Positions 1 to 41,650 of a DNA stretch of 42,026 bases are shown one piece after another (within the stretch, counting starts at the first letter, position 1; each line of letters opens with the position of its first letter). The notes beneath the pieces are model-generated. The model was not told the DNA's origin, did not search any database, and was given only the letters and a program-made list of their open reading frames with translations. The DNA lies in the IMG/VR virus record IMGVR_UViG_2734482779_000005, positions 1 through 42,026 of that record; one strand, given 5' to 3'. The stretch comes from a virus (lineage: Duplodnaviria > Heunggongvirae > Uroviricota > Caudoviricetes). The position numbers and the translations under genes are program-made.

Positions 1-708
1 ATGTGGGTCAATAAGTATATTGACGATTGCACTGATGAGGATTTAAACGATCGTGACTTTATTGCATCAGTTGTTGACCGGGCTATTTTTCATTTCGCGA
101 TTAATAGTATATGTAATCCTGGGGATAATAAAGATGCGACTCCCATTGAACAATGTACTTTTGATGTAGAAACTAAGAATGGCCTTCCCTCCACGGTTCA
201 GCTATTTTATGAGGAATCTAAGGATAATGAACCTTTAGCGAATATACATTTTCAAGCAATAGGTTCTGGTTTTTTAACGTTTGTTAATGCCTGCCAGGAA
301 CATGATGACAACAGCTTAAAATTATTTGCTTCGCTGTTAATTTCACTTTCATATTCTAGTGCCTACGCAGATTTATCAGAAACAGTGTATATTAATGAAA
401 ATAATGAGAGCTACCTGAAAGCTCAGTTTGAAAAATTATCTCAACGTGATATGAAGAAGTACCTGGGAGAGATGAAGCGTCTGGCTGATGGGGGAGAAAT
501 GAATTTTGATGGCTATCTGGATAAGATGTCACATCTGGTGAATGAAGGAACGCTCGATCCTGATATTTTAAGCAAAATGCGAGATGCTGCACCACAATTA
601 ATTAGCTTCGCGAAGTCGTTTGACCCAACCTCAAAGGAAGAGATTAAAATACTTACAGACACTTCTAAATTAATTTATGATTTGTTCGGGGTTAAATCGG
701 AGAAATAA
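1..708 (+). CDS. yjbM: Host-flank uncharacterized protein, YjbM-like (235 aa)
   Basis: Complete 235-aa ORF with ATG at position 1; length and position upstream of dusA match my recollection of E. coli yjbM; followed by a hairpin plus T-run. Identity is from memory, not a search. Confidence 0.45.
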   Translation: MWVNKYIDDCTDEDLNDRDFIASVVDRAIFHFAINSICNPGDNKDATPIEQCTFDVETKNGLPSTVQLFYEESKDNEPLANIHFQAIGSGFLTFVNACQEHDDNSLKLFASLLISLSYSSAYADLSETVYINENNESYLKAQFEKLSQRDMKKYLGEMKRLADGGEMNFDGYLDKMSHLVNEGTLDPDILSKMRDAAPQLISFAKSFDPTSKEEIKILTDTSKLIYDLFGVKSEK

Positions 709-15007: not shown

Positions 15008-15024
15008 TTTTGTGGAGAAAGTTG

Positions 15025-15390
15025 ATGCGTGATATTCAAATGGTTCTGGATCGTTGGGGAGCATGGGCGGCGAGTGATAGTTCTGGAGTAGACTATTCGC
15101 CTATAGCTGCTGGGTTTAAGGGGCTTCTTCCCTACACAAGCAAAACACGTCAGGCTTGTTCAGATAGTGATGCATTAATTATTGAAGGTTGTCTTGCTCG
15201 TCTAAAGCAAAAAAAGCCAGATGAGCACTCGCTGCTTGTGGCACATTATTTATACAGAATATCCAAGCGTAAGATTGCAAAGGTGCGTGGAAAGGATGAA
15301 AAATTGGTACGCATAGAAATACAACTAGCCGAAGGATTTATTGATGGTTGCCTTTCAATGTTGGATGTTAACCTTGAAATGGACGCTTAG
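15025..15390 (+). CDS. Q: Late-gene antitermination protein Q
   Basis: MRDIQMVLDRWGAWAA…IAAGFKGLLP matches the phage antiterminator Q family; ATG 15025 with GGAGA 6 nt upstream. Confidence 0.75.
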   Translation: MRDIQMVLDRWGAWAASDSSGVDYSPIAAGFKGLLPYTSKTRQACSDSDALIIEGCLARLKQKKPDEHSLLVAHYLYRISKRKIAKVRGKDEKLVRIEIQLAEGFIDGCLSMLDVNLEMDA

Positions 15391-15396
15391 GGTTGC

Positions 15397-15426
15397 ACAG
15401 GTTGGCCCCATATGAGGCCAACCTGT
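15397..15426. other. Perfect 11-bp stem-loop (acaggttggcc / ggccaacctgt, 8-nt loop) with no U-tract, between convergent Q and the inverted cassette
   Basis: Read directly; neither strand has a following T-run. Confidence 0.5.
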
Positions 15427-15875
15427 CACAAGTGGGGGAAGATTTTTCGTAACACTAACCAACACCTTCCGAAGGTATATAGCGAAATTATAAGGGAGGA
15501 TAAGCCTAACAGTATGAACAGGAAATCAATAGGTTTGCCCGCAACAATAACATCATCAGGTAGAAACATCGCTATCAATGGAAATATACACGCGACGATG
15601 AGAGTTAACCCTGTTGAAAGTAATCTATTTACCAGAGTTGGTAACACGTTGTTTTGCTTAAGGGCATTAATTGCTCCTTCCTTATCGCTGTTTGCACTAC
15701 TAAATATAGATATTGCAGCCAGAACAAAACCAAACAGGATGCCTGATATAGTCGAGAGCACCCCCGCTGTTGTGAGTACGTCAGCATGCTTCATCGGTTT
15801 AAACAGTTTTGTCGCTGCATAGGTCAACAGAATCCAGAGGACGCATTTCCAGAGAAAAGTGGCTAATTCTCTCAT
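15426..15875 (-). CDS. Four-TM small membrane protein, candidate RexB-like partner
   Basis: 149 aa from the ATG preceded by GGAGGA; four hydrophobic segments (LATFLWKCVLWILLTYAATKLF, VLTTAGVLSTISGILFGFVLAAISIF, LLSTGLTLIVACIFPLIAMFL, IDFLFILLGLSSLIISLYTF); 9-nt gap to the upstream gene. Confidence 0.45.
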   Translation of the reverse strand: MRELATFLWKCVLWILLTYAATKLFKPMKHADVLTTAGVLSTISGILFGFVLAAISIFSSANSDKEGAINALKQNNVLPTLVNRLLSTGLTLIVACIFPLIAMFLPDDVIVAGKPIDFLFILLGLSSLIISLYTFGRCWLVLRKIFPHL

Positions 15876-15896
15876 TGTGTCCTCCATGCTTGGTTA

Positions 15897-16838
15897 TTAG
15901 TCTCTGCTAGCGAGCTCATACTGTGCAAGATAGTTCGCGTTATCAATTTTAGCAGATATCATCGCCGTTCTGATATCAGAATCGGATGGATAACCGCTTT
16001 TGACAATGATTGTCTTTGTACTGACCAATACTTGGTCAAGTAGACTTTTGGGCGTTCTATTGGATGGCTCTGTTACATCAATTTTTTTAATTTTTAGACC
16101 TCCAGAACCTTTTGGAAAAAGTTCAAGTAGTTCCTTAATAGCATCGGTGACAGAAGTTTTTAGATAGTTAAACCCTTGTTTTTTCGGGCGAATCCGACCT
16201 CGCATATTTAATCTTAGATGCGACCCGCCCATACCAACAACCATGTCAATAATTTCATTAGCTAAAGGGTTTTTAATCTTATAATTAGCTTTGTTAAAGT
16301 TTCTTGGAGCAGCAACTATAAGATCGAAACTACGTAGGATATTTCCGTCCTCAAGCAGTTCCTTCATGCTCTCTTGTTTCCAAATGGCTTCAAAAGTGAC
16401 GCTTTTTAAATCAGTTTTGTTATACAAAATGAATGCCAGATCATTTACTTTGGGCCCTATATGGTTGAGGGTCATAGCTAATAAGTCCGTTTCGTAGTAA
16501 TAGATAAAATATGTTCTTTCAACTACAGAATCTTTATCATTTAAAGGAATTGTTCTCTCACTACCTGTAGCATCCTCGATGAACGGTAGTAGGCATTCCC
16601 TTCTCCACGATACGTAACCAAAGTAACATTGCAGTGTGGTATCTTTTTGAAGAATAACTAACTTTAACCCTCGATTTGGGGTGTCTGTTGTGTAAGTTAT
16701 TGGAAAAGTTACAGTATCTGCTGTGGTCATTTGCTCAAAGGCTAGTTTTGCAGCAGATGTGCCATCTTTTTTGCTTCCATTACCAGTGAAAAAACCAACT
16801 CTCACTCGCCTGGTTTTATTCTTATTTTCTGTACTCAT
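15897..16838 (-). CDS. 313-aa soluble protein, candidate RexA-like exclusion protein
   Basis: AT-rich ORF antisense to the late operon; YYYETDLLAMTLNHIGPKVNDLAFIL and FDLIVAAPRNF resemble lambda RexA FVEGDTIGFARTVFGPTTSDLTDFL and FDSLDIVIKPKF as I recall them; needs verification. Confidence 0.4.
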   Translation of the reverse strand: MSTENKNKTRRVRVGFFTGNGSKKDGTSAAKLAFEQMTTADTVTFPITYTTDTPNRGLKLVILQKDTTLQCYFGYVSWRRECLLPFIEDATGSERTIPLNDKDSVVERTYFIYYYETDLLAMTLNHIGPKVNDLAFILYNKTDLKSVTFEAIWKQESMKELLEDGNILRSFDLIVAAPRNFNKANYKIKNPLANEIIDMVVGMGGSHLRLNMRGRIRPKKQGFNYLKTSVTDAIKELLELFPKGSGGLKIKKIDVTEPSNRTPKSLLDQVLVSTKTIIVKSGYPSDSDIRTAMISAKIDNANYLAQYELASRD

Positions 16839-16962
16839 TATCGATCCGAAATAATTTTAGCAACCGTGTGAAAAATACAACAAAAAAAAGAGGAAATCAT
16901 TAGCGCGGTCCGCAAAAAACATTGTAATCTGTTAAGAGTGGTTACTTCGCCACACAGCTTAA

Positions 16963-16987
16963 ACCCGCCGTCGAGCGGGTTTTGTCG
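16963..16987 (+). terminator. tR'-like rho-independent terminator upstream of the lysis cassette
   Basis: acccgc-cgtcga-gcgggt followed by tttgtcgttt; position matches the Q-antiterminated tR' of lambdoid late operons. Confidence 0.45.
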
Positions 16988-17134
16988 TTTCTGTGGCTGG
17001 GGATTCGTTGGTCCTGGCCTATTCCGCAGTTCTCCATCGGTTCGGCTTCTTTGATGTTTCCGCTTCTGATTTGCGGTACATGATGTTCCCTCAATTTGCA
17101 CCTGCTGTATCAGCAAGGTGAGAGATAACTATAA

Positions 17135-17461
17135 ATGCCTCATAACCAAAATACCTGGCTGGAGTTGCTCCAGAGCTGGTGGCGTGGAGACACCCCGCTG
17201 GGCGCAGTGATTATGTCGATCGTTATGGCTGGTTTGCGCATCGCCTATTTTGGCGGTGGTGGTGGCTGGAAGCGAAAAACGCTCGAGATTTTGCTATGTG
17301 GCGCTCTGACGCTGACCTTTGCATCCGCTCTTGAGTATGTCGGATGGCCTAAATCGCTTTCTGTTGCCATTGGGGGTGGCGTGGGGCTGATCGGTGTCGA
17401 TGCTATTCGTGGGGCTGCAATGCGAGTAATCGGTAACAAATTTGGTAGCTCGAAGGAGTAA
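17135..17461 (+). CDS. Holin (lambda S-like class I)
   Basis: 108 aa with three hydrophobic segments and a charged C-terminus; LRIAYFGGGGG and VGLIGVDAIRGAAMRVIGNKF parallel lambda S LRGRYNGG and [20 protein letters not shown]. Confidence 0.65.
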   Translation: MPHNQNTWLELLQSWWRGDTPLGAVIMSIVMAGLRIAYFGGGGGWKRKTLEILLCGALTLTFASALEYVGWPKSLSVAIGGGVGLIGVDAIRGAAMRVIGNKFGSSKE

Positions 17462-18851: not shown

Positions 18852-18976
18852 TAATAATTCTCAACTGTCTGAGGGGAGGGGCGGGTCAAATCTCTGTGGC
18901 CTGACGTCTTCCGGACTGCCCGCCCCATCGTTTTTTTATACCCGCGAAAAATGAAATTTAACCAGGAGTGCCGCAT

Positions 18977-19471
18977 ATGGCTGGAACGGCGGGGCGTTCC
19001 GGGCGTCGCCCCAAGCCAACGGCGCGCAAGGCGCTGGCCGGAAACCCCGGCAAGCGAGCCCTGAACAAAGATGAACCTGTTTTTACGCCCATCAAAGGTG
19101 TTGAGCCACCGGAGTGGTTCGCTGAAGAAGATCTACCTCTCGCCACGATCATGTGGCAACTGACAACCAAAGAACTCTGCGGTCAGGGCCTGCTGTGCGT
19201 GACTGACCTCGCGGTGCTTGAGCGGTGGTGCGTGGCCTATGAGTTCTGGCGACGTGCCGTGAAAAATATTGCCATACAGGGCAACACCATCACCGGTGCA
19301 ATGGGCGGCAGGGTTAAAAATCCGGAGCTGACCGCCAAAAAAGAACAGGAGTCCGAGATGAGCAGCACGGGGGCAATGCTCGGACTCGACCCCAGCAGCC
19401 GCCAGCGTCTGATTGGCCTGGCGGGGCAGAAGAAAGCCACTAACCCGTTTCTGAAAATCATCGAGTCATGA
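18977..19471 (+). CDS. Terminase small subunit
   Basis: About 165 aa with basic N-terminus, translationally coupled to the large subunit; AGGAG 8 nt upstream of ATG 18977. Confidence 0.65.
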
Positions 19472-26265: not shown

Positions 26266-26436
26266 ATGTTTGTCAAACCTGTTAAAGGGCGGTCAGTTCC
26301 TGACCCTGCCCGCGGCGACCTTTTGCCCGCCGAAGGGCGAAATGTTGACGAGAACAACTACTGGCTGCGCCGTGAAGCAGCGGGTGATATCCGGCGCGTG
26401 AATAAAAAGGTGAATACCGATGACGATAAGCTTTAA
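26266..26436 (+). CDS. Small hypothetical protein (56 aa) preceding the sheath gene
   Basis: Hand-translated MFVKPVKGRSVPDPARGDLLPAEGRNVDENNYWLRREAAGDIRRVNKKVNTDDDKL with GAGGAG SD; overlaps the sheath start by 17 nt. Confidence 0.3.
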   Translation: MFVKPVKGRSVPDPARGDLLPAEGRNVDENNYWLRREAAGDIRRVNKKVNTDDDKL

Positions 26437-27916
26437 CACCATTCCGTCGAATACGCTGGTTCCGTTGTTTTATGCGGAAATGGATAACCAGGCGGCGAAT
26501 ACTGCACAGGACAGCGGAGCATCGCTGCTGATTGGTCATGCCAATAACGGTGCAGAGATTGTTGCCAACAGTCTGGTACTGATGCCGTCGGCAGACTATG
26601 CACGCCAGATTTGTGGTGCGGGAAGTCAGCTGGCGCGTATGGTCGAGGCTTATCGCCAGACTGACCCGTTTGGCGAGCTGTATGTGATTGCCGTTCCTGA
26701 ATCCACAGGCGCGGCGGCAACGGTTACGCTGACGGTGACCGGGGAAGCAACCGAAAGCGGCACGGTGAATGTCTATGTGGGACGTACCCGCGTGCAGGCT
26801 TCGGTGACCAACGGCGATAACGTCACGACGATTGCCAGCAGTATCAAAGATGCCATCAATGCCGTTCCGACTCTGCCGTTTACAGCTTCATCTTCGGCTG
26901 GTGTTGTCACGCTGACCGCGCGTCATAAGGGGCTTTGCGGGAATGAAATTCCTGTCAGCCTCAATTACTACGGCTTCGGTGGGGGCGAAGTGCTGCCAGC
27001 GGGCGTACAGATTGCCGTGGCGACGGGGACCGCCGGAACGGGCGCTCCGGTTCTCACCGGCGCGGTGGCTGCAATGGCGGATGAGCCGTTTGATTATATC
27101 GGTCTGCCGTTCAACGACACGGCCTCCGTTAACACGCTGGTGACCGAGATGAACGATACCAGCGGTCGCTGGAGCTATGCGCGTCAGCTGTATGGTCATG
27201 TGTATACGGCAAAGACCGGCACACTGTCAGAACTGGTGAACGCAGGTGACCAGTTTAACCAGCAGCACATCACCCTGGCGGGGTACGAAAAAGAGACCCA
27301 GACGCCTGCCGACGAGCTGGCGGCAAGCCGTACCGCCCGCGCAGCGGTGTTTATCCGCAACGATCCGGCACGTCCCACGCAGACCGGTGAGCTGGCGGGT
27401 ATGCTGCCTGCGCCGAAGGGGAAACGGTTCACGATGACCGAGCAGCAGACCCTGCTGTCTCATGGCGTGGCAACGGCGTATGTCGAAAGCGGGGTGCTGC
27501 GCATTCAGCGTGATGTCACCACGTACAGGAAAAATGCTTACGGGGTTGCGGATAACAGCTACCTCGACAGCGAGACGCTGCATACCAGTGCGTATGTACT
27601 GCGCAAACTGAAATCCGTCATTACCAGTAAGTACGGGCGTCACAAGCTTGCCAGCGACGGTACCCGCTTTGGTCCCGGTCAGGCGATTGTCACCCCGGCG
27701 GTAATCAAAGGGGAACTGCTGGCAACCTACCGTCAGCTTGAGCGTGCGGGGATCGTGGAAAACTACGAACTGTTTAAGCAGTACCTGGTTGTGGAGCGTG
27801 ATGCCAGCGATCCGAACCGCCTGAACACGCTGTTCCCGCCTGACTATGTTAACCAGTTGCGTGTTTTTGCCGTGGTTAACCAGTTCCGTCTTCAGTATTC
27901 AGAGGAGTCTGCATAA
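26420..27916 (+). CDS. Tail sheath protein (contractile tail, Mu gpL-like)
   Basis: 498 aa; followed by tube, chaperone with frameshift, and tape-measure genes in canonical myovirus order. Confidence 0.75.
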   Translation: MTISFNTIPSNTLVPLFYAEMDNQAANTAQDSGASLLIGHANNGAEIVANSLVLMPSADYARQICGAGSQLARMVEAYRQTDPFGELYVIAVPESTGAAATVTLTVTGEATESGTVNVYVGRTRVQASVTNGDNVTTIASSIKDAINAVPTLPFTASSSAGVVTLTARHKGLCGNEIPVSLNYYGFGGGEVLPAGVQIAVATGTAGTGAPVLTGAVAAMADEPFDYIGLPFNDTASVNTLVTEMNDTSGRWSYARQLYGHVYTAKTGTLSELVNAGDQFNQQHITLAGYEKETQTPADELAASRTARAAVFIRNDPARPTQTGELAGMLPAPKGKRFTMTEQQTLLSHGVATAYVESGVLRIQRDVTTYRKNAYGVADNSYLDSETLHTSAYVLRKLKSVITSKYGRHKLASDGTRFGPGQAIVTPAVIKGELLATYRQLERAGIVENYELFKQYLVVERDASDPNRLNTLFPPDYVNQLRVFAVVNQFRLQYSEESA

Positions 27917-28272
27917 TGGCCCGTATCGGGGGAACCTGTTATTTCAAAATTGACGGTCAGCAGCTATCGCTGACCGGCGGCATTGAGGTGCCCATGAACA
28001 GGACGGTCAATGATGACATCATCGGCCTGGACGGTTCAGTGGACCGCAAGGAAACTCACCGTGCGCCTTATGTCAAAGGGACTTTCAAGGTGCCGAAGAA
28101 TTTTCCGGTGAACAAAATCACCTCGTCTGATGAGATGACTATCACTGCCGAGCTGGCGAACGGTCAGGTCTATGTACTGTCGTCTGCCTGGCTGCACGGC
28201 GAAGCGAACCATAATGCCGAAGAAGGCACGGTTGATCTTGAGTTCCACGGTGAAGAAGGGGATTACCAGTAA
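27916..28272 (+). CDS. Tail tube protein (Mu gpM-like)
   Basis: 118 aa directly after the sheath gene. Confidence 0.7.
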   Translation: MARIGGTCYFKIDGQQLSLTGGIEVPMNRTVNDDIIGLDGSVDRKETHRAPYVKGTFKVPKNFPVNKITSSDEMTITAELANGQVYVLSSAWLHGEANHNAEEGTVDLEFHGEEGDYQ

Positions 28273-28541
28273 TGAAAGAGCTTGAGTTAAAGAAACCGAT
28301 TACTGCTCATGGCGAGACACTCTCCGTACTGGAGTTTGATGAGCCCACCGGGAAGGATGTCCGCGAGCTGGGGTATCCCTACCAGATGAATCAGGATGAG
28401 TCAGTCAGACTTCTGGCGCATGTGGTGTCGAAATACATTGTGCGGCTGGCGAAAGTGCCGCAAAGCTCTGTCGACCAGATGTCTCCGGCAGACCTGAATG
28501 CAGCGGCGTGGCTTGTGGCTGGTTTTTTCCTCCAGGCCTGA
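28272..28541 (+). CDS. Tail assembly chaperone (zero-frame product)
   Basis: 89 aa immediately upstream of the tape measure; contains slippery heptamer T TTT TTC at 28523-28529. Confidence 0.6.
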   Translation: MKELELKKPITAHGETLSVLEFDEPTGKDVRELGYPYQMNQDESVRLLAHVVSKYIVRLAKVPQSSVDQMSPADLNAAAWLVAGFFLQA

Positions 28542-28690
28542 CGGCTGAATACCTCACTGATCGCTTCTTTGACTGCGCCAGCTACTGGCGCATTAATCCT
28601 TTCGAATTGCTGAATATGCCGATCAGTGAAATTCCCTTACTGGTCAGTCAGGCAAACAGGATAGAGCAGGAGAAACGCACACATGGCTGA
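28508..28690 (+). CDS. Tail assembly chaperone -1 frameshift extension (G-T-like fusion C-terminus)
   Basis: -1 frame ORF beginning inside the slippery region and ending inside the tape-measure start; analogous to lambda G/GT. Confidence 0.55.
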   Translation: MACGWFFPPGLTAEYLTDRFFDCASYWRINPFELLNMPISEIPLLVSQANRIEQEKRTHG

Positions 28691-30515
28691 ATTTGAGCTT
28701 AAGGCGTTGATCACCGGTGTCGACAGGCTTTCTCCCGCGCTGTCGAAAATGCAAAAGAAAATCCGGGGATTTAAACGCCAGGCGGAAGAAGCGTCACAGG
28801 GTGGGCTGGCGCTTGGTGGCGGACTGGCAGCGGGTCTGACGCTTTCCCTGAAATCTTATGCCGATCAGGAAAACGCCGCCACCGGGCTGAAAGTCGCCAT
28901 GATGGATGCGAACGGCGAGGTTGGAAAGAGCTTTCAGGACATCAATAAACTGGCTATTGGCCTGGGTAACCAGCTACCCGGTACAACGGCTGATTTCCAG
29001 AACATGATGCAGATGCTGGTGCGTCAGGGGATCCCGGCAGAAAACATTCTGGGTGGTGTGGGTAAAGCGACAGCTTATCTTGCGGTACAACTGAAAAAAA
29101 CACCGGAAGCGGCTGCTGAGTTTGCTGCAAAGATGCAGGATGCTACCGGAACGGCGTCAGAAGACATGATGGGGCTGTTCGACACTATCCAGAAGGCGTT
29201 TTATCTGGGCGTTGACGATACCAACATGTTGTCCTTCTTCACTAAAACCAGTTCTGTTCTGAAGATGGTGAACAAGGATGGTCTTCAGGCTGCACAGAGC
29301 CTTGCCCCCATCAGCGTCATGATGGATCAGATGGGGATGAACGGGGAGTCGGCAGGTAATGCCCTGCGAAAAGTTATCCAGTCCGGATTAAGCGTTAAGA
29401 AAATCAGGGACGTTAATAAAGTTATGGCCCGCCAGAAACTCGGGGTACAGCTCGATTTTACTGACGGCAAAGGAAGTTTTGGCGGTCTTGATAACATGTT
29501 CAGGCAACTGGCAAAGCTGCGAAAACTGACCGACGTTAAGCGAACCGGTGTACTTAAGGCAATATTTGGTGATGATGCCGAAACCCTTCAGGTGGTCAAT
29601 GCACTAATCGATAAAGGAAAGGATGGCTACGATCAGATCCAGCAGAAGATGAATAAACAGGCCAGCCTGAATAAACGTGTTCAGGCACAGCTTGGTACGC
29701 TGTCCAACCTGTGGGAGGCAATGACAGGGACCGCAACTAACGGCCTTGCGGCTATTGGCGGCGCATTTTCTGGTGACGCTAAAAATATCACACAATGGCT
29801 GGGGGAGTTGGGGGAGAAATTCACGAAGTTTGCGGATGAAAATCCCCGGGTTATTCGCGGCGTCGTCGGGCTTGCTGCCGGTCTTGCGATTCTGAAACTG
29901 GGATTGATGGGCGTTGGCGGTGCCATCAGTATTGTCAGCAGGATTATGTCGATGACGCCGATTGGCATGATTGCGACGGCGATTGCTCTGGCTGCGGGAT
30001 TAATTATCACTAACTGGGATGTTGTCGGACCTTATTTCAAGAAGCTCTGGGAAACCATTGGTCCTTATTTTGAGGCAGGTTGGGAACTTCTGAAGAAGGT
30101 TTTTGCCTGGTCGCCGCTGGGGATGGTGATCAATAACTGGGGACCGGTTGTTAAGTGGTTTCAGGATATGTGGGACAAGCTGAAGCCAATTATTGAGTGG
30201 TTTACCGACAGTTCCGGTGACACGGTCGATGCCATTAACTCTGCGCAGTGGGGCGCGGGTGCTTATGATGCTTATGGGACGGGAATACCGGCGCGGGGAT
30301 ACACACCTTATCCGGCGGTGGATCCGGCTCAGTCAAACAACGCCTCCGATGCCACAGGCTCGAATCCCTTCATGATTAACAAAGCTTCTGTGCCAAAAGT
30401 TGATGGTGAGATCAAGGTCTCTTTTGTGAATTCGCCTCCGGGTATGCGGGTTATGGAAACGCGATCCAGCGGTTTTGATGTCAGCCATGATGTTGGCTAT
30501 ACGCGGTTCAGGTAG
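28683..30515 (+). CDS. Tail tape measure protein
   Basis: 610 aa, Ala/Gly/Met-rich helical protein with TM-like segments; sits after the frameshifted chaperone. Confidence 0.8.
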   Translation: MAEFELKALITGVDRLSPALSKMQKKIRGFKRQAEEASQGGLALGGGLAAGLTLSLKSYADQENAATGLKVAMMDANGEVGKSFQDINKLAIGLGNQLPGTTADFQNMMQMLVRQGIPAENILGGVGKATAYLAVQLKKTPEAAAEFAAKMQDATGTASEDMMGLFDTIQKAFYLGVDDTNMLSFFTKTSSVLKMVNKDGLQAAQSLAPISVMMDQMGMNGESAGNALRKVIQSGLSVKKIRDVNKVMARQKLGVQLDFTDGKGSFGGLDNMFRQLAKLRKLTDVKRTGVLKAIFGDDAETLQVVNALIDKGKDGYDQIQQKMNKQASLNKRVQAQLGTLSNLWEAMTGTATNGLAAIGGAFSGDAKNITQWLGELGEKFTKFADENPRVIRGVVGLAAGLAILKLGLMGVGGAISIVSRIMSMTPIGMIATAIALAAGLIITNWDVVGPYFKKLWETIGPYFEAGWELLKKVFAWSPLGMVINNWGPVVKWFQDMWDKLKPIIEWFTDSSGDTVDAINSAQWGAGAYDAYGTGIPARGYTPYPAVDPAQSNNASDATGSNPFMINKASVPKVDGEIKVSFVNSPPGMRVMETRSSGFDVSHDVGYTRFR

Positions 30516-30614
30516 TGTACAAAATGATTAATGTGTTTTTGTCTGGCATAATTTGGGTTTTCAGCTTTAAGTAGTTAATATAATCATTCCTTACAAATGA
30601 TTGAAGGGATGATT

Positions 30615-31109
30615 ATGCGTATCTTTGTTTTTTTTATATCTGCACTTTTATCTTTTAACTTGGCTGCGGAAGAGTGTAAGTTCAGCTTTAATGAGTCAGA
30701 ATTAATCTCTTCTATAGGTATTGCACCAGTTAAGCAAGAGATAATAAAGGATGAAGGAATAACTAAGCGGCAATATGAATTCAGAAGAGAATTATCTTCT
30801 GAAGAAATGCTTAGTGATGACGCTGATGAAAAATATGAGCCGCAGTTTTATATATCTGTTTATAATCCATCATGCCCACAAAAGGTTATTGTTTGGTTTT
30901 TCAAAGACAATAAAAACACAATGGATTTAAGTAATGAGGTCCTTGCTGGTAGAGCGTTCAAGTATTTAACTGGTGTTAATGAAAGTATTTTTGAAAATAA
31001 AATGAAAAAGTTTTTAAAGGTACAGTCATTTGAATCTTTTGATGAAAGGACAGATTCTAAATTTATAAAGAGTGGTAATATTTATTCCATTGATGTTCAA
31101 CTCAGATAG
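30615..31109 (+). CDS. AT-rich moron: secreted protein of unknown function (164 aa with signal peptide)
   Basis: Signal peptide MRIFVFFISALLSFNLAA|EE; AGGGA SD; perfect TATAAT at about 30577; appears markedly more AT-rich than the flanking tail genes. Confidence 0.55.
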   Translation: MRIFVFFISALLSFNLAAEECKFSFNESELISSIGIAPVKQEIIKDEGITKRQYEFRRELSSEEMLSDDADEKYEPQFYISVYNPSCPQKVIVWFFKDNKNTMDLSNEVLAGRAFKYLTGVNESIFENKMKKFLKVQSFESFDERTDSKFIKSGNIYSIDVQLR

Positions 31110-31199
31110 TAATTAAAAATATTAGGTTCCCGCCACATCTTCTGCGATGTAAATAACTGACAAAGCAGATTTGGCGGGTTTTTTGTATCCGGAGTTTAT

Positions 31200-32528
31200 A
31201 TGACGTGGAAAGACAGGCTTCAGGATGCGTCATTTCGCGGCGTACCGTTTAAGGTTGAAGAAGAAAGTGCGGGAACCGGTCGCCGTGTGGAAACACACGA
31301 ATATCCGAACCGCGACAAGCCCTATACCGAAGATCTGGGAAAAGTCACTTTCCGCCCGTCCATCACAGCTTATGTGGTGGGAGATGACTGCTTTGACCAG
31401 CGCGATCGCCTGATTGAAGCGCTGAATAAACCCGGTCCCGGCACGCTTGTCCACCCGACATATGGTGAGCTGAAAGTCTGTGTTGACGGGGAAGTTCGGG
31501 TCAGCACATCGAAAAGTGAAGGGCGTATTGTCCGCTTTGACCTGAAGTTTGTCGAAGCAGGAGAACTCTCTTACCCCACATCAGGTGCGGCGACGGCGCA
31601 GACGCTGATGTCATCCTGTTCTGCACTGGATGACTGCATCAGTGACAGCTTCAGCGGTTTCAGTATCGATGGTGTGGCGGATTTCGTGCAGAACGACGTT
31701 ATCGGTAATGCCAGCACAATGCTGGGGTATGTTTCTGATGCGATGAAAGTGGTGGATTCTGCCGTATCGGATGCCGCCAGGCTGTTACAGGGGGATATCT
31801 CGGTACTTCTGCCGCCGCCATCGTCAGGCAAAAATTTCGTTGAGCAGGTGCAGAAAATGTGGCGTACCGGGAAACGCCTTTATGGTAACGCCAGCGACCT
31901 GGTCACCATGATCAAAACGCTTTCCGGTGTCAGCCTCGGCAGCGATCTGCAACCGCGCGGCGTCTGGAAAACGGACAGTAAAACCACCGCCACGGCTACG
32001 CAGCAGCGTAACGTGGTTGCCAGCACCCTTCGTACGACCGCAATCAGCGAAGCGGCGTATGCCGTCACCCGATTGCCTGCGCCAACAACTTCCGCGGTGA
32101 TGCAGAATTCCGCAGTGGGGCAGGCAACAACACCCGCGCAGAGCACTGGCTGGCCTTCCGTCACGCATCCGGCACTGAACAATGCACCGGCGGTGAAAAA
32201 CACGGTTGACCTGCCGACGTGGGAAGAACTGACTGACATTCGCGACACACTGAATACGGCAATTGATAAGGAGTTGTCCCGTACAACCAGTGATGCGCTG
32301 TTTCTGGCGCTGCGCCGGGTGAAAGCAGATCTGAATGCGGATATCAACACGCGCCTTGAACAGTCTGCACGGATCATTCAGCGCACACCGGATGAGGTTT
32401 TACCCGCGCTGGTGCTGGCAGCGACCTGGTTTGATAACGCGGCGCGTGACGCGGACATTATCCGGCGTAATGCCATTACGCATCCCGGCTTTGTGCCGGT
32501 GATCCCTCTGAAGGTGCCAGTGCAATGA
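31200..32528 (+). CDS. DNA circularization protein (Mu gpN-like)
   Basis: 442 aa; N-terminal MTWKDRLQDASFRGVPFKVEEES… is typical of the Mu N family (recollection); position after the tape measure. Confidence 0.65.
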   Translation: MTWKDRLQDASFRGVPFKVEEESAGTGRRVETHEYPNRDKPYTEDLGKVTFRPSITAYVVGDDCFDQRDRLIEALNKPGPGTLVHPTYGELKVCVDGEVRVSTSKSEGRIVRFDLKFVEAGELSYPTSGAATAQTLMSSCSALDDCISDSFSGFSIDGVADFVQNDVIGNASTMLGYVSDAMKVVDSAVSDAARLLQGDISVLLPPPSSGKNFVEQVQKMWRTGKRLYGNASDLVTMIKTLSGVSLGSDLQPRGVWKTDSKTTATATQQRNVVASTLRTTAISEAAYAVTRLPAPTTSAVMQNSAVGQATTPAQSTGWPSVTHPALNNAPAVKNTVDLPTWEELTDIRDTLNTAIDKELSRTTSDALFLALRRVKADLNADINTRLEQSARIIQRTPDEVLPALVLAATWFDNAARDADIIRRNAITHPGFVPVIPLKVPVQ

Positions 32529-33604
32529 ACGACAATGTCACGCTACGGGTAAATGGCCGGGAGTGGAATGGCTGGACATCGGTGCGCATCGGTGCCGGTA
32601 TTGAACGGCTGGCGCGGGATTTCAGTGTGGAGATCACTCGCCAGTGGCCGGGTGATGAGGGTATCACCACGCTTCAGCCGCGCATTAAAAACGGTTCAAA
32701 AGTGGAGGTGCTGATTGGTGATGAGCTGGTGATCACCGGCTGGGTGGAGGCGACGCCCGTTCGTTACGATGCCCGTTCGGTCAGCACCGGTATTGCCGGA
32801 CGCAGTCTGACCGCTGACCTGATTGATTGTGCAGCCGAACCGACACAGTTTAACGGACGATCACTGGTACAGATTGCGCAGGCGCTTGCTGCGCCTTTCG
32901 GCATTGAGGTGGTGAACAACGGTGCGCCGTCGGGTGTTATTCCTGACGTCCAGCCTGATCACGGTGAAACGGTGATTGAGGTAATCAACAAAATACTCGG
33001 TCAGCAGCAGGCACTGGCTTACGACGATCCGCACGGCAGGCTGGTGATTGGCGGTATTGGCTCAACGCGGGCACATACCGCGCTGGTACTCGGGGAAAAC
33101 ATCCTTTCCTGTGATACGGAGAAGAGTATCCGGGAGCGGTTTTCAGTTTACCAGGTGGCGGGGCAGCGTGCCGGAAACGACGATGATTTCGGAGAGGCCA
33201 CCACCACCGCGCTGCGGGCCCGCACAGAGGACGCATTTATTGCCCGTTACCGTCCGATGTATATCAGGCAGACAGGGCAGGCCACGGGGGCAGGCTGTAT
33301 TGCCCGTGCTGACTTTGAAGCCCGACAACGGGCGGCGCGGACGGATGAAACCACCTATGTGGTGCAGGGCTGGCGACAGGGTAACGGTACGCTGTGGCAG
33401 CCCAACCAGCGGGTGATTGTCTTCGATCCTGTCTGTGGTTTCGACAATACCGAACTGCTTGTCTCGGAAGTCACGTTTACTCAGGACCAGAACGGCACCC
33501 TGACGGAAATCCGTGTCGGCCCACCTGATGCTTATCTGCCTGAACCCGAAGCCCCCGGCGCGCGGAAAAAGAAAAAAGCCAGAGTACAGGAGGACCCGTT
33601 CTGA
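32525..33604 (+). CDS. Baseplate hub / tail protein (Mu gpP-like)
   Basis: 359 aa; positional within the Mu-like baseplate cluster. Confidence 0.6.
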   Translation: MNDNVTLRVNGREWNGWTSVRIGAGIERLARDFSVEITRQWPGDEGITTLQPRIKNGSKVEVLIGDELVITGWVEATPVRYDARSVSTGIAGRSLTADLIDCAAEPTQFNGRSLVQIAQALAAPFGIEVVNNGAPSGVIPDVQPDHGETVIEVINKILGQQQALAYDDPHGRLVIGGIGSTRAHTALVLGENILSCDTEKSIRERFSVYQVAGQRAGNDDDFGEATTTALRARTEDAFIARYRPMYIRQTGQATGAGCIARADFEARQRAARTDETTYVVQGWRQGNGTLWQPNQRVIVFDPVCGFDNTELLVSEVTFTQDQNGTLTEIRVGPPDAYLPEPEAPGARKKKKARVQEDPF

Positions 33605-36200: not shown

Positions 36201-36848
36201 ATGCATCGTATAGACACGAAAACCGCGCAGAAGGATAAGTTCGGCGCGGGTAAGAACGGTTTTACCCGTGGTAACCCCCAGACCGGCACGCCTGCCACCG
36301 ATCTGGATGATGACTACTTTGACATGTTGCAGGAGGAGCTTTGCAGCGTTGTGGAGGCATCCGGTGCCAGCCTGGAGAAGGGGCGGCATGACCAGCTGCT
36401 TACCGCGCTTCGTGCGCTGCTGTTAAGCCGCAAGAATCCGTTTGGCGATATCAAATCGGATGGCACGGTGAAAACAGCTCTCGAAAACCTTGGTTTGGGA
36501 GAAGCGGCGAAAAGGGATGTGGGCACAGGAGATAATCAGATACCGGATATGGGAGCATTCGCTTCTGGTTCGGGATGGTTCAGGCTACCAGGTGGATATA
36601 TTGTTCAGTTTGGCACTTTTTCAGGAAACACGACCCGCTTTATCAGTGGACACTTCCCTATACCATTCCCTAATCAACCGCTTGTTTCAGTCAGTGTCAT
36701 GTCTGATGCCGTTCAGTCAGAACCGTCGAATCCTGCACCGCTGGTTTTATCTGTAAATTTTGAACATATCAGTAATTCAGCGTGGCGTGTGGCAATCAGT
36801 GATATCTCTCAACAATACAGATTCAGTTATATTTCGATAGGACGGTAG
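36201..36848 (+). CDS. Tail fibre protein with invertible C-terminal receptor-binding region (current orientation)
   Basis: 215 aa; the crossover site lies at codons ~97-101 (…NLGLGE…), so the C-terminal ~115 aa belong to the invertible segment. Confidence 0.65.
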
Positions 36849-36850
36849 AA

Positions 36851-37291
36851 ATGCAGAAATATATTTTCAGTGCTGATAAAAATGCGTTTTTCCCTGTGGA
36901 GCTTAAAATTGCTTATCAGGAAGCGGGGAAATGGCCTGATGATGGAATCGAAATTGACGACACTGTTGCCGCCGAATTTATGAAGGAAGCACCAGAAGGA
37001 AAATACAGAGGTGTCATCGACGGAATGCCAGCATGGATTGATATTCCACCGCCAACTCATGAGGAACAAATTGCCGCAGCCGAACTGGAAAAGCAGCAAT
37101 TGATTAATCAGGTCAACGAATACATAAACAGTAAGCAATGGCCTGGTAAAGCGGCGATTGGTCGCCTGAAAGGTGAGGAACTGGCGCAATATAATTTGTG
37201 GCTGGATTACCTGGACGCACTGGAACTGGTCGATACTTCCGGTGCGCCAGATATTGAATGGCCTACGCCTCCGGCAGTTCAGGCCAGATGA
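36851..37291 (+). CDS. Tail fibre assembly protein (Tfa, current orientation)
   Basis: 146 aa; MQKYIFSADKNAFFP… and C-terminal …WPTPP… are typical of Tfa chaperones. Confidence 0.7.
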   Translation: MQKYIFSADKNAFFPVELKIAYQEAGKWPDDGIEIDDTVAAEFMKEAPEGKYRGVIDGMPAWIDIPPPTHEEQIAAAELEKQQLINQVNEYINSKQWPGKAAIGRLKGEELAQYNLWLDYLDALELVDTSGAPDIEWPTPPAVQAR

Positions 37292-37865
37292 CATCCGGCG
37301 CGGTGCTGGTATCTGTTGCCGTCACCGCGTCAATGTAATCCAGCACAGCGTTAAGTCGGGTGGTTTCTGCCTGCGTCAGCTTCCGCCCGGCCTGCAATTT
37401 CAGTTGAATCAGACTGATGGAAGCCATTGCAGTATCAATCAGTGACTGACGCTGTGCTTCTGCCGCGTCTACTGCGGCGCAATGCTGTGCCTCAGTATCG
37501 GTCACCCATTTCTCACCATCCCATTTATCGAATGGCGTTAACGGGGCGATAGTGGTTGTATTTTCAGGGTAATCACCCGGAGCTGTGATTTCTTTTGATT
37601 CTCCTGTTTCAGTGCTATATACCGTTTCACCACGGTGGTCTGGCACATATACCCATGAGTTAAAATCTGCAGAACGGCAGATTACATAACCAGCTTTATA
37701 TGAGTCAGGAGCATCTAAACAGGAGCATGCCGGAATGCCGACACCCACAGCAAGATATTCAGTTGATGTGAAAATATATTCCCGTGTTTCACCATCATAG
37801 TTATATACGGTGATTTCTCCGTTGTTTATTGCGTAGCCGTCTTTCCCCAAAATAGCTTGTTCCAT
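37263..37865 (-). CDS. Alternative tail fibre assembly protein (Tfa', inverted orientation)
   Basis: 200 aa on the opposite strand within the invertible segment; C-terminus …VIWPELPEA is Tfa-like. Confidence 0.65.
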   Translation of the reverse strand: MEQAILGKDGYAINNGEITVYNYDGETREYIFTSTEYLAVGVGIPACSCLDAPDSYKAGYVICRSADFNSWVYVPDHRGETVYSTETGESKEITAPGDYPENTTTIAPLTPFDKWDGEKWVTDTEAQHCAAVDAAEAQRQSLIDTAMASISLIQLKLQAGRKLTQAETTRLNAVLDYIDAVTATDTSTAPDVIWPELPEA

Positions 37866-38333
37866 TTATGCAGTCCTCACAATGTAGTTAAATGCAATGT
37901 TGCGCGGGCGAGATTCATCACCACCGCTTGGCATCGATGTCAGCCCTGATGACGAACCAGTCCATCCATTGGCTGGACGGTTCATAAATCCTTCACCCGA
38001 TGTGTAATATTTCTTCGCGTAGATAGATGTTGTTCCTGGCACGCCACCAGCAGTTCCCCCGACTGCGCCAACGTCATCATGAACGTGCGACAAGTTTTGA
38101 CTGTTTTGATGTGAAAGCAGTGCGCGCCCACTATCGGCACCGCGCCCATCATCCCAGCCACGAATAAACTCACCACGTAAATCAGGCAATTTATTTGTCG
38201 GGTAAGCCTTTGCCAGTTCCGGGTATTCTTCAGGAGAAAAAGCCGCACCATTGCATTTCAGCCAGCCTGTTGGCGGAGTGGCTGAAGGCCACGGAACAGG
38301 CACACCAACGGGTAATGCCGAACCTTCTCCCAA
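37866..38333 (-). CDS. Alternative tail fibre C-terminal segment (promoterless, silent in this orientation)
   Basis: Reading frame continues open into the right crossover site; …PVGVPVPWPSATPPTGWLKCNGAAFSPEEYPELAKAY…LPDLRGEFIRGW… resembles the Mu/P1 fibre variable-domain pattern. Confidence 0.6.
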   Translation of the reverse strand: MGEGSALPVGVPVPWPSATPPTGWLKCNGAAFSPEEYPELAKAYPTNKLPDLRGEFIRGWDDGRGADSGRALLSHQNSQNLSHVHDDVGAVGGTAGGVPGTTSIYAKKYYTSGEGFMNRPANGWTGSSSGLTSMPSGGDESRPRNIAFNYIVRTA

Positions 38334-38409
38334 ACCAACCTTTCAAATATTTTTCTGAATCAGGTGATATTTCGCCTCTTCTCCTGTTTTTACAACAGGA
38401 GAAGCACTC

Positions 38410-38973
38410 ATGATTTACGGGTATGTTCGTGTATCAACAAATCATCAGGATACAGAGTTGCAACGTCTTGCACTTGAGTCAGCTGGCTGTGAGCGAATTT
38501 ATGAAGAATATGCCAGTGGCAGAACAGCTAATCGCCCTGTGTTAAAGGAATTAATTTCGGTGATGAAAAGTGGAGATGAGTTGATTGTCTGGAAGCTAGA
38601 TCGGATAGGGAGAAATGTGCTACATGCGCTATTGATGTTTCAAAATCTGCACGAAAAAGGCGTTAATTTTCGGAGTATTACAGATGGTGTAGACCTGAAA
38701 ACAGCAAGTGGTCGCTATAATTTCCGTAATATTCTTTCTGCTGCGCAGTATGAATCTGATTTGAATAGCGAGCGAACTTTAGCTGGTTTGGCTATTGCCA
38801 GATCCAAAGGCCGGATTGGTGGGCGTAGACCGAAGTTTAGCGACGAGCAGTGGCAACAGATGGGAGCGCTCATAGCGGCAGGGAAATCACGGCGTTATGT
38901 TGCACGTATCTATAACGTTGGGCTATCAACCCTATATAAACGATTTCCTGTTACTGGCATTCAAACGAAATAA
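38410..38973 (+). CDS. pin: Serine DNA invertase (Pin/Gin/Hin/Cin family)
   Basis: 187 aa; N-terminal MIYGYVRVSTNHQDTELQ with catalytic-serine context and C-terminal HTH; adjacent to the invertible segment. Confidence 0.85.
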   Translation: MIYGYVRVSTNHQDTELQRLALESAGCERIYEEYASGRTANRPVLKELISVMKSGDELIVWKLDRIGRNVLHALLMFQNLHEKGVNFRSITDGVDLKTASGRYNFRNILSAAQYESDLNSERTLAGLAIARSKGRIGGRRPKFSDEQWQQMGALIAAGKSRRYVARIYNVGLSTLYKRFPVTGIQTK

Positions 38974-39116: not shown

Positions 39117-39365
39117 TTAGTGAACAAACCACTCGTCAGCAGATTCCCAGGTATCTTTCAGAGTCTCCTGAACAAAAGTTTTTGCAGAATCCTTATCTGC
39201 GGTGCGTGTAACAGAAAGGCCATCGTTGCTGGTGGCTTTTACGATCACCTCTACATCGTCATAACGTTTACTGATGCGTCGGGTTAATTCTTCCTTTAAC
39301 GCATCCACAGCACCGGTTGGCATTTTAGTCATTTTTTCTTTGGCTATGCAGATTTCAATACGCAT
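39117..39365 (-). CDS. dinI: DinI-like DNA-damage-inducible protein
   Basis: 82 aa; MRIEICIAK…[11 protein letters not shown] parallels E. coli DinI (MRIEVTIAK…TWESADDWFV). Confidence 0.8.
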
Positions 39366-39426: not shown

Positions 39427-40524
39427 TCAAGAGGTCTTATTTCTGCTCCTTTGGAGCTCTTCAAAACGATTATGTAAAGATTTCGGATACAGTTCGGTAT
39501 ATACCTGCCATAGCACGTTTAATGAACGATGCCCTGTGACCTGGGCGACTTCCTCAATACTAAAACCAGCCTCAAATAAGCGACTTGCCCCTTCTCTACG
39601 CAAATCATGGTATCGCAGATCCTTAATACCTAATTTGCTTCTTACCCTCTGAAATCCCGCAGTAACAGAAGTGCTGTTATATGGAAAAATGAATTCCGAT
39701 TTTTTGGGCTGTCGTTGGACGATATCCCAGGCTTCCCCAAGCAAGGCTACTTTCATGTGGTTGCCTTCCTTTTTGCGTGGATCTTTCCTGTCTCTTACGA
39801 GTATAGATTTTTGTTCCTGGTCGAGATCTTCCCATCGTAACCGGCATACTTCTCCGATCCGCATACAGGACCACACAGAAAATTTGAGGATATCAACGAA
39901 CGGAATTTTTGAGCATTTATGAGTAGATCGTTGTTGAAGGCCTTCAATGAGCATGTCCAGTTCATCAGATGCTGGTCTACGATTACGACGGTTTGATTTA
40001 CCAATCAAACCAAGTTTAAGTAGATATGGGCGAGCGCTTTTCGCCGGGTTTGATGTGTAATTAATTCCGTATACAGGTTTGGCCGCATCCAGAACACTGC
40101 CAAGATAACTAACATCGTGGCTGACTGTTGCTGGACCTGCACCAGCGTTGTTTCTTAGCCTGCAATGTTCAATTACGTCATTTTCTGTCAGTTCAGATAG
40201 TTTGATCGCGGAGATGTCACTATCCATAAGCAGTTCCAGCACATATCTTTTAGTACGGCCTGCTTTACCTCCGGCATTTGGGTCATTTAAATATTTGTGT
40301 AGTAAGTCACGGACTGTAAGTCCGTCAACTGCATTTGATGATGGAATGCCATATAGATCTAATTCCATCACTTTCTGTGTTCCCCATGTTTTGGCATGAG
40401 CATGTTTAGGGAATGTTTTGCTTTCCCTGTAAGTGATAACACCTTTTTCTTTGATAATCACATTACAGCGATAGCGTGGTGTGCCATCGGATTTTAGTCG
40501 TTTCTCTATGTTATAGTACGCCAT
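39427..40524 (-). CDS. int: Tyrosine integrase (dusA-specific class)
   Basis: 365 aa; C-terminal catalytic region …HDLRREGASRLFEAGFSIEEVAQVTGHRSLNVLWQVY… (R/H/R/Y signature); divergent from and adjacent to dusA. Confidence 0.85.
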   Translation of the reverse strand: MAYYNIEKRLKSDGTPRYRCNVIIKEKGVITYRESKTFPKHAHAKTWGTQKVMELDLYGIPSSNAVDGLTVRDLLHKYLNDPNAGGKAGRTKRYVLELLMDSDISAIKLSELTENDVIEHCRLRNNAGAGPATVSHDVSYLGSVLDAAKPVYGINYTSNPAKSARPYLLKLGLIGKSNRRNRRPASDELDMLIEGLQQRSTHKCSKIPFVDILKFSVWSCMRIGEVCRLRWEDLDQEQKSILVRDRKDPRKKEGNHMKVALLGEAWDIVQRQPKKSEFIFPYNSTSVTAGFQRVRSKLGIKDLRYHDLRREGASRLFEAGFSIEEVAQVTGHRSLNVLWQVYTELYPKSLHNRFEELQRSRNKTS

Positions 40525-40612: not shown

Positions 40613-41650
40613 ATGCACGATAATCATGAAACACAAAAAATTAATCAAACCAGCGTGATGCCTGAAAAAACTGGTGTTTACTGGAATTCTCGGTTTAGCA
40701 TTGCTCCTATGCTCGACTGGACGGACAGACATTGCCGCTATTTCTTGCGTCTGCTTTCCCGCAGTACGTTGCTTTATACCGAAATGGTGACCACAGGGGC
40801 GATTATTCACGGTAAAGGTGATTATCTGGCGTACAGTGAAGAAGAACATCCGGTAGCGTTGCAACTAGGCGGTAGCGATCCGGCGGCGCTGGCGCAGTGT
40901 GCAAAGCTGGCAGAAGCGCGCGGATATGATGAGATCAACCTGAATGTCGGCTGCCCGTCTGACCGGGTGCAGAACGGCATGTTTGGTGCGTGTCTGATGG
41001 GTAATGCGCAGCTGGTTGCCGACTGCGTGAAAGCGATGCGCGATGTGGTGTCGATTCCGGTGACGGTGAAAACGCGTATTGGCATCGACGACCAGGACAG
41101 CTATGAATTTCTCTGCGATTTCATCAATACCGTTTCCGGCAAAGGCGAGTGTGAGATGTTCATCATCCACGCACGTAAAGCCTGGCTTTCGGGGTTAAGC
41201 CCGAAAGAAAACCGTGAAATCCCGCCGCTCGATTATCCGCGTGTGTATCAACTGAAGCGTGACTTTCCGCATCTGACAATGTCGATTAACGGTGGTATCA
41301 AGTCGCTGGAAGAGGCCAAAGCACACCTGCAACATATGGATGGCGTGATGGTCGGGCGCGAGGCGTATCAGAATCCGGGTATTCTGGCGGCGGTAGACCG
41401 GGAGATCTTTGGTTCCTCGGATACCGATGCCGATCCGGTGGCGGTAGTGCGCGCCATGTATCCGTACATTGAGCGTGAACTCAGCCAGGGGACGTATCTC
41501 GGCCATATTACCCGGCATATGCTGGGTTTGTTCCAGGGTATTCCTGGCGCGCGGCAGTGGCGGCGTTATTTAAGTGAAAATGCCCATAAAGCGGGTGCTG
41601 ACATTAACGTGCTGGAACACGCGCTCAAACTGGTGGCGGATAAGCGTTAA
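40613..41650 (+). CDS. dusA: tRNA-dihydrouridine synthase A (5' end supplied by the prophage)
   Basis: 345 aa; …NLNVGCPS… and TIM-barrel Dus family features; a second divergent copy of its first ~40 codons lies at 1071-1193. Confidence 0.9.

Follow-up and report, generated by a model that had tools for sequence, protein, structure and literature searches.

The subject of this analysis is ORF X, an open reading frame (ORF) of 164 codons in the virus record IMGVR_UViG_2734482779_000005 of IMG/VR, positions 1 to 42,026 (this whole stretch of 42,026 nucleotides is referred to below as the window). The window holds an SfV-like prophage integrated at dusA in an Escherichia coli host, and ORF X (X below, for the gene and its product) occupies a slot of the Mu-type tail operon between the tape-measure gene and the DNA-circularization gene, which encodes a Mu gp43-like baseplate hub protein (Table 1). 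We found that X is a genuine and dispensable gene under purifying selection, that the slot in which it lies is variable, that X has diverged together with the tail genes around it, that its product carries the features of a signal peptide, and that a hairpin in its leader and another at the downstream end of the slot are genuine. X is an uncharacterised member of PHROG 8976 and belongs to a known type of element. Tentatively, we propose that it is an insulated accessory unit of the Mu-type tail module and that its product may be a periplasmic blocker of phage entry acting from the lysogen.

The initial annotation, which was made from the letters of the sequence, described an AT-rich stretch of about 0.6 kb between the tape-measure and DNA-circularization genes with an ORF of 164 amino acids (aa), and both descriptions held. 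The region 30516-31199 is the most AT-rich of the window: in 300-nt windows the GC content was 0.30-0.34 across 30500-31250 versus 0.52-0.56 in the flanks, and the lowest-GC 600-nt window in all 42 kb (0.352) fell at the ORF X stretch. ORF X itself has a GC content of 0.311 (flanking genes 0.52 and 0.56) and a GC content at third codon positions (GC3) of 0.261 (flanking genes 0.565 and 0.600). Its product begins with MRIFVFFISALLSFNLAA followed by EEC, and the Shine-Dalgarno sequence (SD) GAAGGGA is placed 5 nt upstream of the start. An alternative start at ATG 30597 would give 170 aa; the homologs and the annotation in RefSeq by the Prokaryotic Genome Annotation Pipeline (PGAP) begin at MR (30615).

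The same 901-bp configuration of the junction was present in SKA5 and in 84 of 5,426 complete E. coli genomes (1.5%), at an identity of at least 97.8%. In SfV, SfII, SfI and vB_EcoM-689R6 the junction measured 280 bp, i.e. about 620 bp less, with both flanks 94-97% identical; X was absent from SfIV, too, and from most of the E. coli prophages with the slot junction. The matching set for E. coli comprised 1,087 records, with 1079 genomes in which the junction was present and X in 84 of these 1079. The 280-bp form was the commonest: of 60 rows taken at even steps from the ranked 1,087 records, 27 showed it, and most of the remaining rows matched only one flank. Since the plaque-forming phages SfV, SfII and SfI have both flanks without X, X is dispensable. 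Alignments of X-carrying with empty sites part a few dozen bases past the tape-measure stop codon and rejoin in the 3ʹ half of a hairpin with a T-run that precedes the DNA-circularization start. Transposon-like mobility of X was rejected, as neither a target-site duplication nor terminal inverted repeats were found at the difference between X-carrying and empty sites.

Two other genes were found in the same position. In E. coli G5 (L013, 1672-2049, plus strand) the slot holds a gene with a GC content of 0.378 for a cytoplasmic 125-aa bPH_1 (PF08000) protein, with GATATAAT upstream and the slot hairpin downstream. In E. coli DS26-1 (L014, 1649-2095, minus strand) it holds a gene with a GC content of 0.374, whose product is a 148-aa OB-fold protein of the tRNA_anti-like type (PF12869) anchored in the membrane at its N-terminus; after this gene a GC-rich palindrome directly adjoins the tape-measure stop codon. 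Because unrelated AT-rich cargo, or nothing, occupies the same junction, we regard the tape-measure/hub junction as a true cargo slot. A second variable slot was noticed one gene downstream, between the DNA-circularization and gp44-like genes, with extra genes in L008, L012, L055 and L070; in L008 (7980-9778) these are ORFs of 506 and 93 aa, for which Pfam and PADLOC returned no match.

The X family is very small: at 90% identity it falls into 14 clusters, and at 50% identity it has 12 representatives in a set of 1.84 billion proteins. Every homolog for which the context was obtained (about 70 loci) lies in the slot between the tape-measure and DNA-circularization genes, down to 26% identity; members in the slot include those of Kluyvera, of an Atlantibacter metagenome-assembled genome, of Pantoea phage AH07 (40%) and of an IMG/VR lineage (36-38%), as well as the most distant one (26%). 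For the latter, scans of viral contigs and metagenomes returned nothing, and its context was obtained via exact-protein lookup. X is also encoded, with 99.4% protein identity, at 18911-19402 of CP077666.1, a 38.9-kb 'plasmid' of Salmonella enterica; the size of this record suggests an excised circular phage genome deposited as a plasmid.

The identity of X tracks that of the flanking proteins, with Spearman coefficients of 0.84 and 0.89 over 13 lineages that are not phylogenetically independent. In the close comparison with L016, X showed a synonymous divergence (dS) of 0.067 versus 0.079 and 0.104 for the flanks, and the ratio of nonsynonymous to synonymous divergence (dN/dS) of X was 0.19; since its dS equals that of the flanks, X shares their history. 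The initial annotation spoke of a gene inserted into the operon, and as a recent horizontal arrival this is contradicted by the constant slot in about 70 loci, by the correlation with both flanks and by the dS. In distant comparisons the proportion of synonymous differences (pS) was saturated at about 0.8, and the proportion of nonsynonymous differences (pN) was 0.24-0.39 for X versus 0.12-0.26 (tape measure) and 0.15-0.32 (DNA-circularization protein). X is therefore under purifying selection, with the protein evolving about 1.5-2 times faster than its flanks, as expected either for a protein engaged in interaction or an arms race or for weaker constraint. Full-length members are intact at 160-166 aa, with 26-67% identity to the window protein and 45 invariant columns in 11 sequences.

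In every lineage X has a lower GC3 than its flanks, with values of 0.26-0.35 nearest the window and of 0.35-0.45 in the deeper lineages. Since synonymous sites have fully turned over, the AT-richness is probably maintained and not the fading signature of an import. Low GC content combined with presence and absence among close relatives is thus no proof of recent acquisition, as X shows. The simplest history is that of an old accessory gene of the tail module, which was lost (SfV, SfII) or replaced (by the bPH and OB-fold genes) in some recent E. coli and Shigella lineages. Of the label 'moron', given to the stretch in the initial annotation, dispensability, divergent base composition and location in a cargo slot stand, recency does not, and a promoter and terminator owned by the cargo are doubtful.

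The N-terminus of X has the layout of a signal peptide: an M-R n-region, a 12-residue hydrophobic core IFVFFISALLSF (Kyte-Doolittle 2.67) and a c-region NLAA↓EE. We judged it by a heuristic that combined the n-h-c layout, hydropathy and comparison within the family. The signal segments of the family keep this layout while their sequence varies and end in V/S/A/I-x-A with a small residue at -1, and in X this is the sole strongly hydrophobic segment. The cleavable signal peptide proposed in the initial annotation is thus supported as a prediction, with a charged n-region, a hydrophobic core, a small residue at -1 and a layout conserved in the family. A lipoprotein was rejected, as X is without an L-x-x-C lipobox. 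The predicted mature protein has 146 aa, a mass of 17.1 kDa and an isoelectric point of 5.0. Two cysteines are invariant in the family, at mature position +3 and at residue 87, and one disulfide probably stabilises X. From the family alignment, AlphaFold2 modelled a confident alpha/beta domain, with a mean predicted local distance difference test score (pLDDT) of 86.9 and a predicted template modelling score (pTM) of 0.79; the domain begins after an N-terminal helix that was modelled with low confidence and detached from it. X would thus be exported via Sec to the periplasm, as a soluble protein of about 17 kDa whose alpha/beta fold is an orphan.

PHROG 8976 spans residues 1-164 of 164 with E = 4.4e-107, matches 14 of the 14 family members tested and is without functional annotation. 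The remote-homology and structure searches that had been suggested in the initial annotation yielded no named family or convincing fold neighbour beyond this group; in BFVD there was a single full-length match, to an uncharacterised metagenomic phage protein (template modelling score 0.60). In RefSeq, X is the 'hypothetical protein' WP_023277704. A literature search on this accession, on SKA5, on AH07 and on the PHROG yielded only a genome announcement and no paper naming the gene.

Within the signal-peptide codons we observed a T8 homopolymer (30627-30634), which is T7 in two of 36 near-identical copies (L044, L056), frameshifted after 29 aa; in another copy (L059) the start ATG is AAG. The disrupted copies may reflect either a real off-switch or sequencing error.

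X is preceded in the window by an AT-rich leader that buries its ribosome-binding site (RBS) in a hairpin. The hairpin has a folding energy of -16.5 kcal/mol (z = -4.63), equalled by none of 200 shuffles. On the full leader the accessibility of the RBS was 0.04 versus 0.33 expected (P = 0.01, with the RBS segment fixed and the upstream leader shuffled), and it was 0.49 on a transcript beginning about 24 nt before the AUG, where a start driven by TATAAT would fall (about 30591-30595). The RBS was also occluded in a 95% relative (L042, P = 0.003), and occlusion recurred in the non-homologous leaders of L048 (P = 0.007) and L055 (0 of 300 shuffles) and was borderline in L008 (P = 0.05); at the control starts, those of the tape-measure and DNA-circularization genes, the RBS was not occluded. 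The spacers upstream of X are 61-133 nt long and lineage-specific in those lineages that lie closer to the window (protein identity 52-62%). When the 99-nt spacer was shuffled by dinucleotides, the TATAAT hexamer arose in 11% of the shuffles and an extended -10 with a score of 5/6 or more in 13.5%. TATAAT begins the 5ʹ arm of the hairpin, and it could equally exist merely through its complementarity to GAUUAUG at the start codon. No known RNA was found by Rfam within 30300-31400. The small RNA svsR (PMC12803456) was set aside, as it comes from a lambda-like siphovirus and is irrelevant to the ORF X locus.

At the other end of the slot a second hairpin, followed by a T-run, belongs to the slot and not to the cargo, because it is present in empty sites, including those of SfII where it is annotated as a terminator in GenBank, and after the bPH cargo. 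In all lineages ACCCGCTTCGGCGGGT is followed by T6-7, ahead of the RBS and ATG of the DNA-circularization gene. In the window CCCGCCA (31129-31135) pairs with TGGCGGG (31172-31178), within 15-nt arms (31129-31143 and 31164-31178), and T6 follows at 31179-31184. The stem was 100% paired in 13 lineages, with two pairs changed on both sides, e.g. G-C to A-U; its covariation score was reached by none of 500 shuffles, and slid controls paired in just 32-51%. This hairpin belongs to the slot as an RNA or terminator element under selection. The initial annotation had placed a hairpin with a T-run near 31150-31185 and had assigned it to the inserted gene; the structure is there, and its assignment as a terminator of the cargo is not supported, since empty sites have it, too. 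The tetraloop is TTCG in the other lineages, apart from TGCG, TCCG or CTCG in three of them; in the lineage of the window, a 35-nt insertion that forms a small stem of its own takes its place (31136-31171).

How these elements could work together is suggested by folding statistics and geometry. In SfV-like temperate phages X has stayed with the Mu-type tail module over a long time, in the variable slot between the tape measure and the hub. On read-through mRNA of the late operon the 14-bp leader hairpin would close the ribosome-binding site of X, and a transcript started from the weak -10 in the 5ʹ arm of the hairpin would leave X open for translation. Such a transcript would end at the conserved hairpin and T-run, before the baseplate genes. 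The protein would then work against incoming phage in the envelope of the lysogenic cell and block a step of entry after adsorption (superinfection exclusion). The products of the tape-measure and gp43-like hub genes, between which X sits, cross the periplasm during infection. In view of its strict and deep linkage to the tail module, its position and its faster evolution than that of its neighbours, the role of X is probably phage-centred. It probably involves a partner from the same module, as the age of this linkage to a single tail module suggests.

This proposal ranks first among the explanations, but with low confidence, and several observations weigh against it. A second or third SfV-type junction was present in 19 of 60 X-carrying E. 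coli records versus at most 104 of the 1,027 other matching records (odds ratio 4.1, Fisher P = 1e-5, a test that ignores phylogeny, clonality, order of acquisition and attachment site), and this enrichment argues against a broad exclusion of the phage's own type. X had zero matches in Pfam, NCBIfam, PADLOC and the PDB, and PHROGs returned phrog_8976 alone; its fold showed no resemblance to a solved exclusion protein and had no convincing neighbour. The best -35/-10 pair of the leader scored at chance (P = 0.94), as did the promoter motifs, and a promoter scanner found no two-hexamer sigma-70 site on the plus strand there. Occlusion of the RBS is not universal, being not significant in L004, L011, L058 and L057. 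In three deep lineages the spacing between the tape-measure gene and X shrinks to 12-16 nt or to a 17-nt overlap. A private promoter would not fit there, so X must be expressed with the late operon in these lineages. Thus, of the 'own perfect TATAAT' of the initial annotation (placed at about 30577) the hexamer stands, and its status as a promoter of X is doubtful in view of chance-level motifs and the lineages with no spacer.

A more specific form of the proposal is that X founds a new-fold periplasmic family that binds an incoming component of the Mu-type tail (the C-terminus of the tape measure or the gp43-45 hub), restricted to the prophage by an anti-RBS hairpin in which the promoter is embedded, i.e. 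a tail-operon gene turned into a self-insulated moron. We consider it a long shot; if true, the phage's own progeny would be spared neutralisation at lysis.

X could instead be a classical lysogenic-conversion moron, that is, a recent foreign cassette with its own promoter and terminator and a secreted product that serves the bacterial host in stress tolerance, colonisation or virulence. The AT-richness, the absence from close relatives, the cargo slot and the signal peptide would all fit, and on plain inspection many X-carrying E. coli come from poultry or other animals. However, co-divergence with the tail genes down to 26% identity, a dS like that of the flanks, confinement of the family to the tail module, where every representative with context lies in the slot, and a terminator that is not specific to the cargo are hard to reconcile with a recent cassette. 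The hosts differ widely in their ecology (E. coli, Salmonella, Kluyvera, Atlantibacter and leaf Pantoea), which fits a phage-centred role better. We regard the conversion moron as unlikely.

Equally unlikely, in our estimate, is a late helper of the lytic cycle, made with the tail genes and periplasmic late in infection, which might act in lysis timing, or might keep progeny from ejecting uselessly into debris or guard them against superinfection in the latent period. The strict linkage to the tail module agrees with such a helper, as do the three deepest lineages, where X follows the tape-measure stop by 12-16 nt with its own SD or overlaps the gene. Nevertheless, the RBS is closed on read-through transcripts in the window and in the lineages of L048 and L055, X is dispensable in plaque-forming relatives, and a terminator-like hairpin follows X everywhere.

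A structural or assembly component of the tail, e.g. an accessory of the baseplate or tape measure, is highly improbable, even though the position between the tape measure and the hub is conserved and X co-diverges with both. SfV, SfII, SfI and many prophages have 98-99% identical flanks without X, the slot can hold unrelated genes, one of them on the opposite strand, X matches no tail-protein family, and the signal peptide would take X out of the cytoplasm, where tails are assembled. We reject the structural explanation because an exported protein cannot be part of the tail and phages without X are viable. The initial annotation had itself set a conserved structural tail component against its proposal, and X, being absent from SfV, SfII, SfI, SfIV and most E. 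coli prophages with the junction, is not conserved in that way. Finally, a decaying or non-functional ORF hitch-hiking in an AT-rich spacer, for which one could cite the disruption of 3 of 36 near-identical copies (two frameshifted by T7 in place of T8 and one without the start codon) and the lack of a known domain, has the least credit of all and is effectively refuted by the signal of selection, as the ORF has kept its frame and length although synonymous sites are saturated, pN lies far below pS, the 45 invariant columns include both cysteines, and the fold is predicted confidently.

Table 1. Positions of ORF X, its control elements and other features of the prophage in the window.
Feature	Position	Strand	Remark
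Lambda-type Q antiterminator gene	15010-15390		
Tail sheath gene	26420-27916		
Tail tube gene	27916-28272		
Tail chaperone gene	28272-28541		
Tape-measure gene	28683-30515	+	610 aa; PF10145, E = 1e-26; phrog_28/17727; collinearity with SfII reaches to the last two codons; left border of the slot
AT-rich leader/spacer	30516-30614	+	99 nt, GC 0.28; lineage-specific, cannot be aligned with leaders of other lineages
TGgCATAAT, candidate extended -10-like motif	30544-30552	+	read from sequence
TATAAT, candidate -10	30579-30584	+	without matching -35; also begins the 5ʹ arm of the leader hairpin
Leader hairpin	30579-30617	+	14-bp stem, 30579-30592 with 30604-30617; sequesters SD AAGGGA (30604-30609) and AUG (30615-30617)
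ORF X	30615-31109	+	164 aa; PHROG 8976; flanked by the tape-measure and DNA-circularization (Mu gp43-like) genes
Signal-peptide codons (MRIFVFFISALLSFNLAA)	30615-30668	+	predicted cleavage by signal peptidase I after A18
Junction hairpin and T6	31129-31184	+	conserved, intrinsic-terminator-like; just before the RBS and ATG of the DNA-circularization gene
DNA-circularization/Mu gp43-like baseplate hub gene	31200-32528	+	RBS GGAG 31191-31194, ATG 31200; PF07157, E = 4e-34; phrog_184; right border of the slot
gp44-like gene	32525-33604		
Integrase gene	39427-40524	-	
dusA	40613-41650		

Apart from the Q antiterminator and the Mu-type contractile tail, the prophage has an HK97-type head. Further observations were made elsewhere in the window. 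Between Q and the holin gene (17135-17461) lie three ORFs on the minus strand (15426-17116; 153, 313 and 92 aa; GC 0.37-0.42), with zero matches in Pfam and PADLOC; they are a candidate second, larger cargo island, in the classical slot between Q and the lysis genes. Opposed ORFs for tail fibre and tail-fibre assembly beside a serine recombinase gene (38410-38973) suggest an invertible host-range segment at 36201-38973. A DinI-like gene is located at 39117-39365 on the minus strand. The left edge of the window (1-708) lies in a region with a GC content of 0.37 and encodes a DUF2713 protein (PF10897, E = 1e-165), which is complete. The tail junction of the window is 100% identical to that of E. 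coli 19-5 (L015), yet only 47% of 25-mers are common across the prophage; the named Q and lysis-region genes of L015 are without exact counterpart in the window, and the tail-fibre regions differ in length. The two prophages thus display strong mosaicism around a conserved tail module.

Tail operons are known to harbour cargo genes with phage-versus-phage and host-modifying functions, few of which have been characterised. For X as an entry blocker, the nearest precedent by analogy would be HK97 gp15, the original moron, which blocks DNA entry with a specificity determined by the tail of the incoming phage (Juhala et al. 2000; Cumby et al. 2012; review PMC3594210). Both are small, AT-shifted and dispensable accessory genes that adjoin the tape-measure gene in the tail operon, with a product targeted to the envelope, for X by prediction. 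However, gp15 is a YebO-like inner-membrane protein whose gene lies between the tail chaperone and the tape measure, whereas X is predicted to be a soluble exported alpha/beta protein and follows the tape measure; the two have no sequence relation, and X is ancient in its module and without bacterial homologs outside it. Spackle (Sp) of T4 and Sim of P1 are periplasmic phage proteins with signal peptides that block infection after adsorption, at the myovirus tail tip or at DNA entry. They would be functional analogues of the role proposed for X.

The leader of X recalls the 'fold-back inhibition' of IS10/Tn10, reportedly described by Davis, Simons and Kleckner in 1985, in which transcripts from outside are said to be translationally closed at the transposase RBS. 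In both cases the RBS pairs with bases that lie immediately before the start of the element's own transcript, which for X is a candidate. The gating in IS10 was demonstrated experimentally, whereas that of X is suggested by folding statistics and geometry, with a promoter that is only a candidate. Such an architecture would offer a simple route by which a gene embedded in a late operon comes to be expressed from its own promoter only.

A fixed and tolerated site in the structural operon with cargo that differs among near-identical phages is also known from P2, at moron positions 1 and 2 (PMC3573123). The slot of X resembles those of P2 and the lambdoid phages in its fixed site and swapped cargo (X, the bPH_1 protein and the OB-fold protein). 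In the lambdoid phages, lom and bor of lambda are further examples of genes in moron slots. Noteworthy in X are an RBS-occluding leader that contains a candidate -10 and the long-kept AT-richness of a vertically inherited tail-module gene; and unlike the P2 and lambdoid slots, that of X has kept one cargo, X, through the deep divergence of its module instead of swapping it freely.

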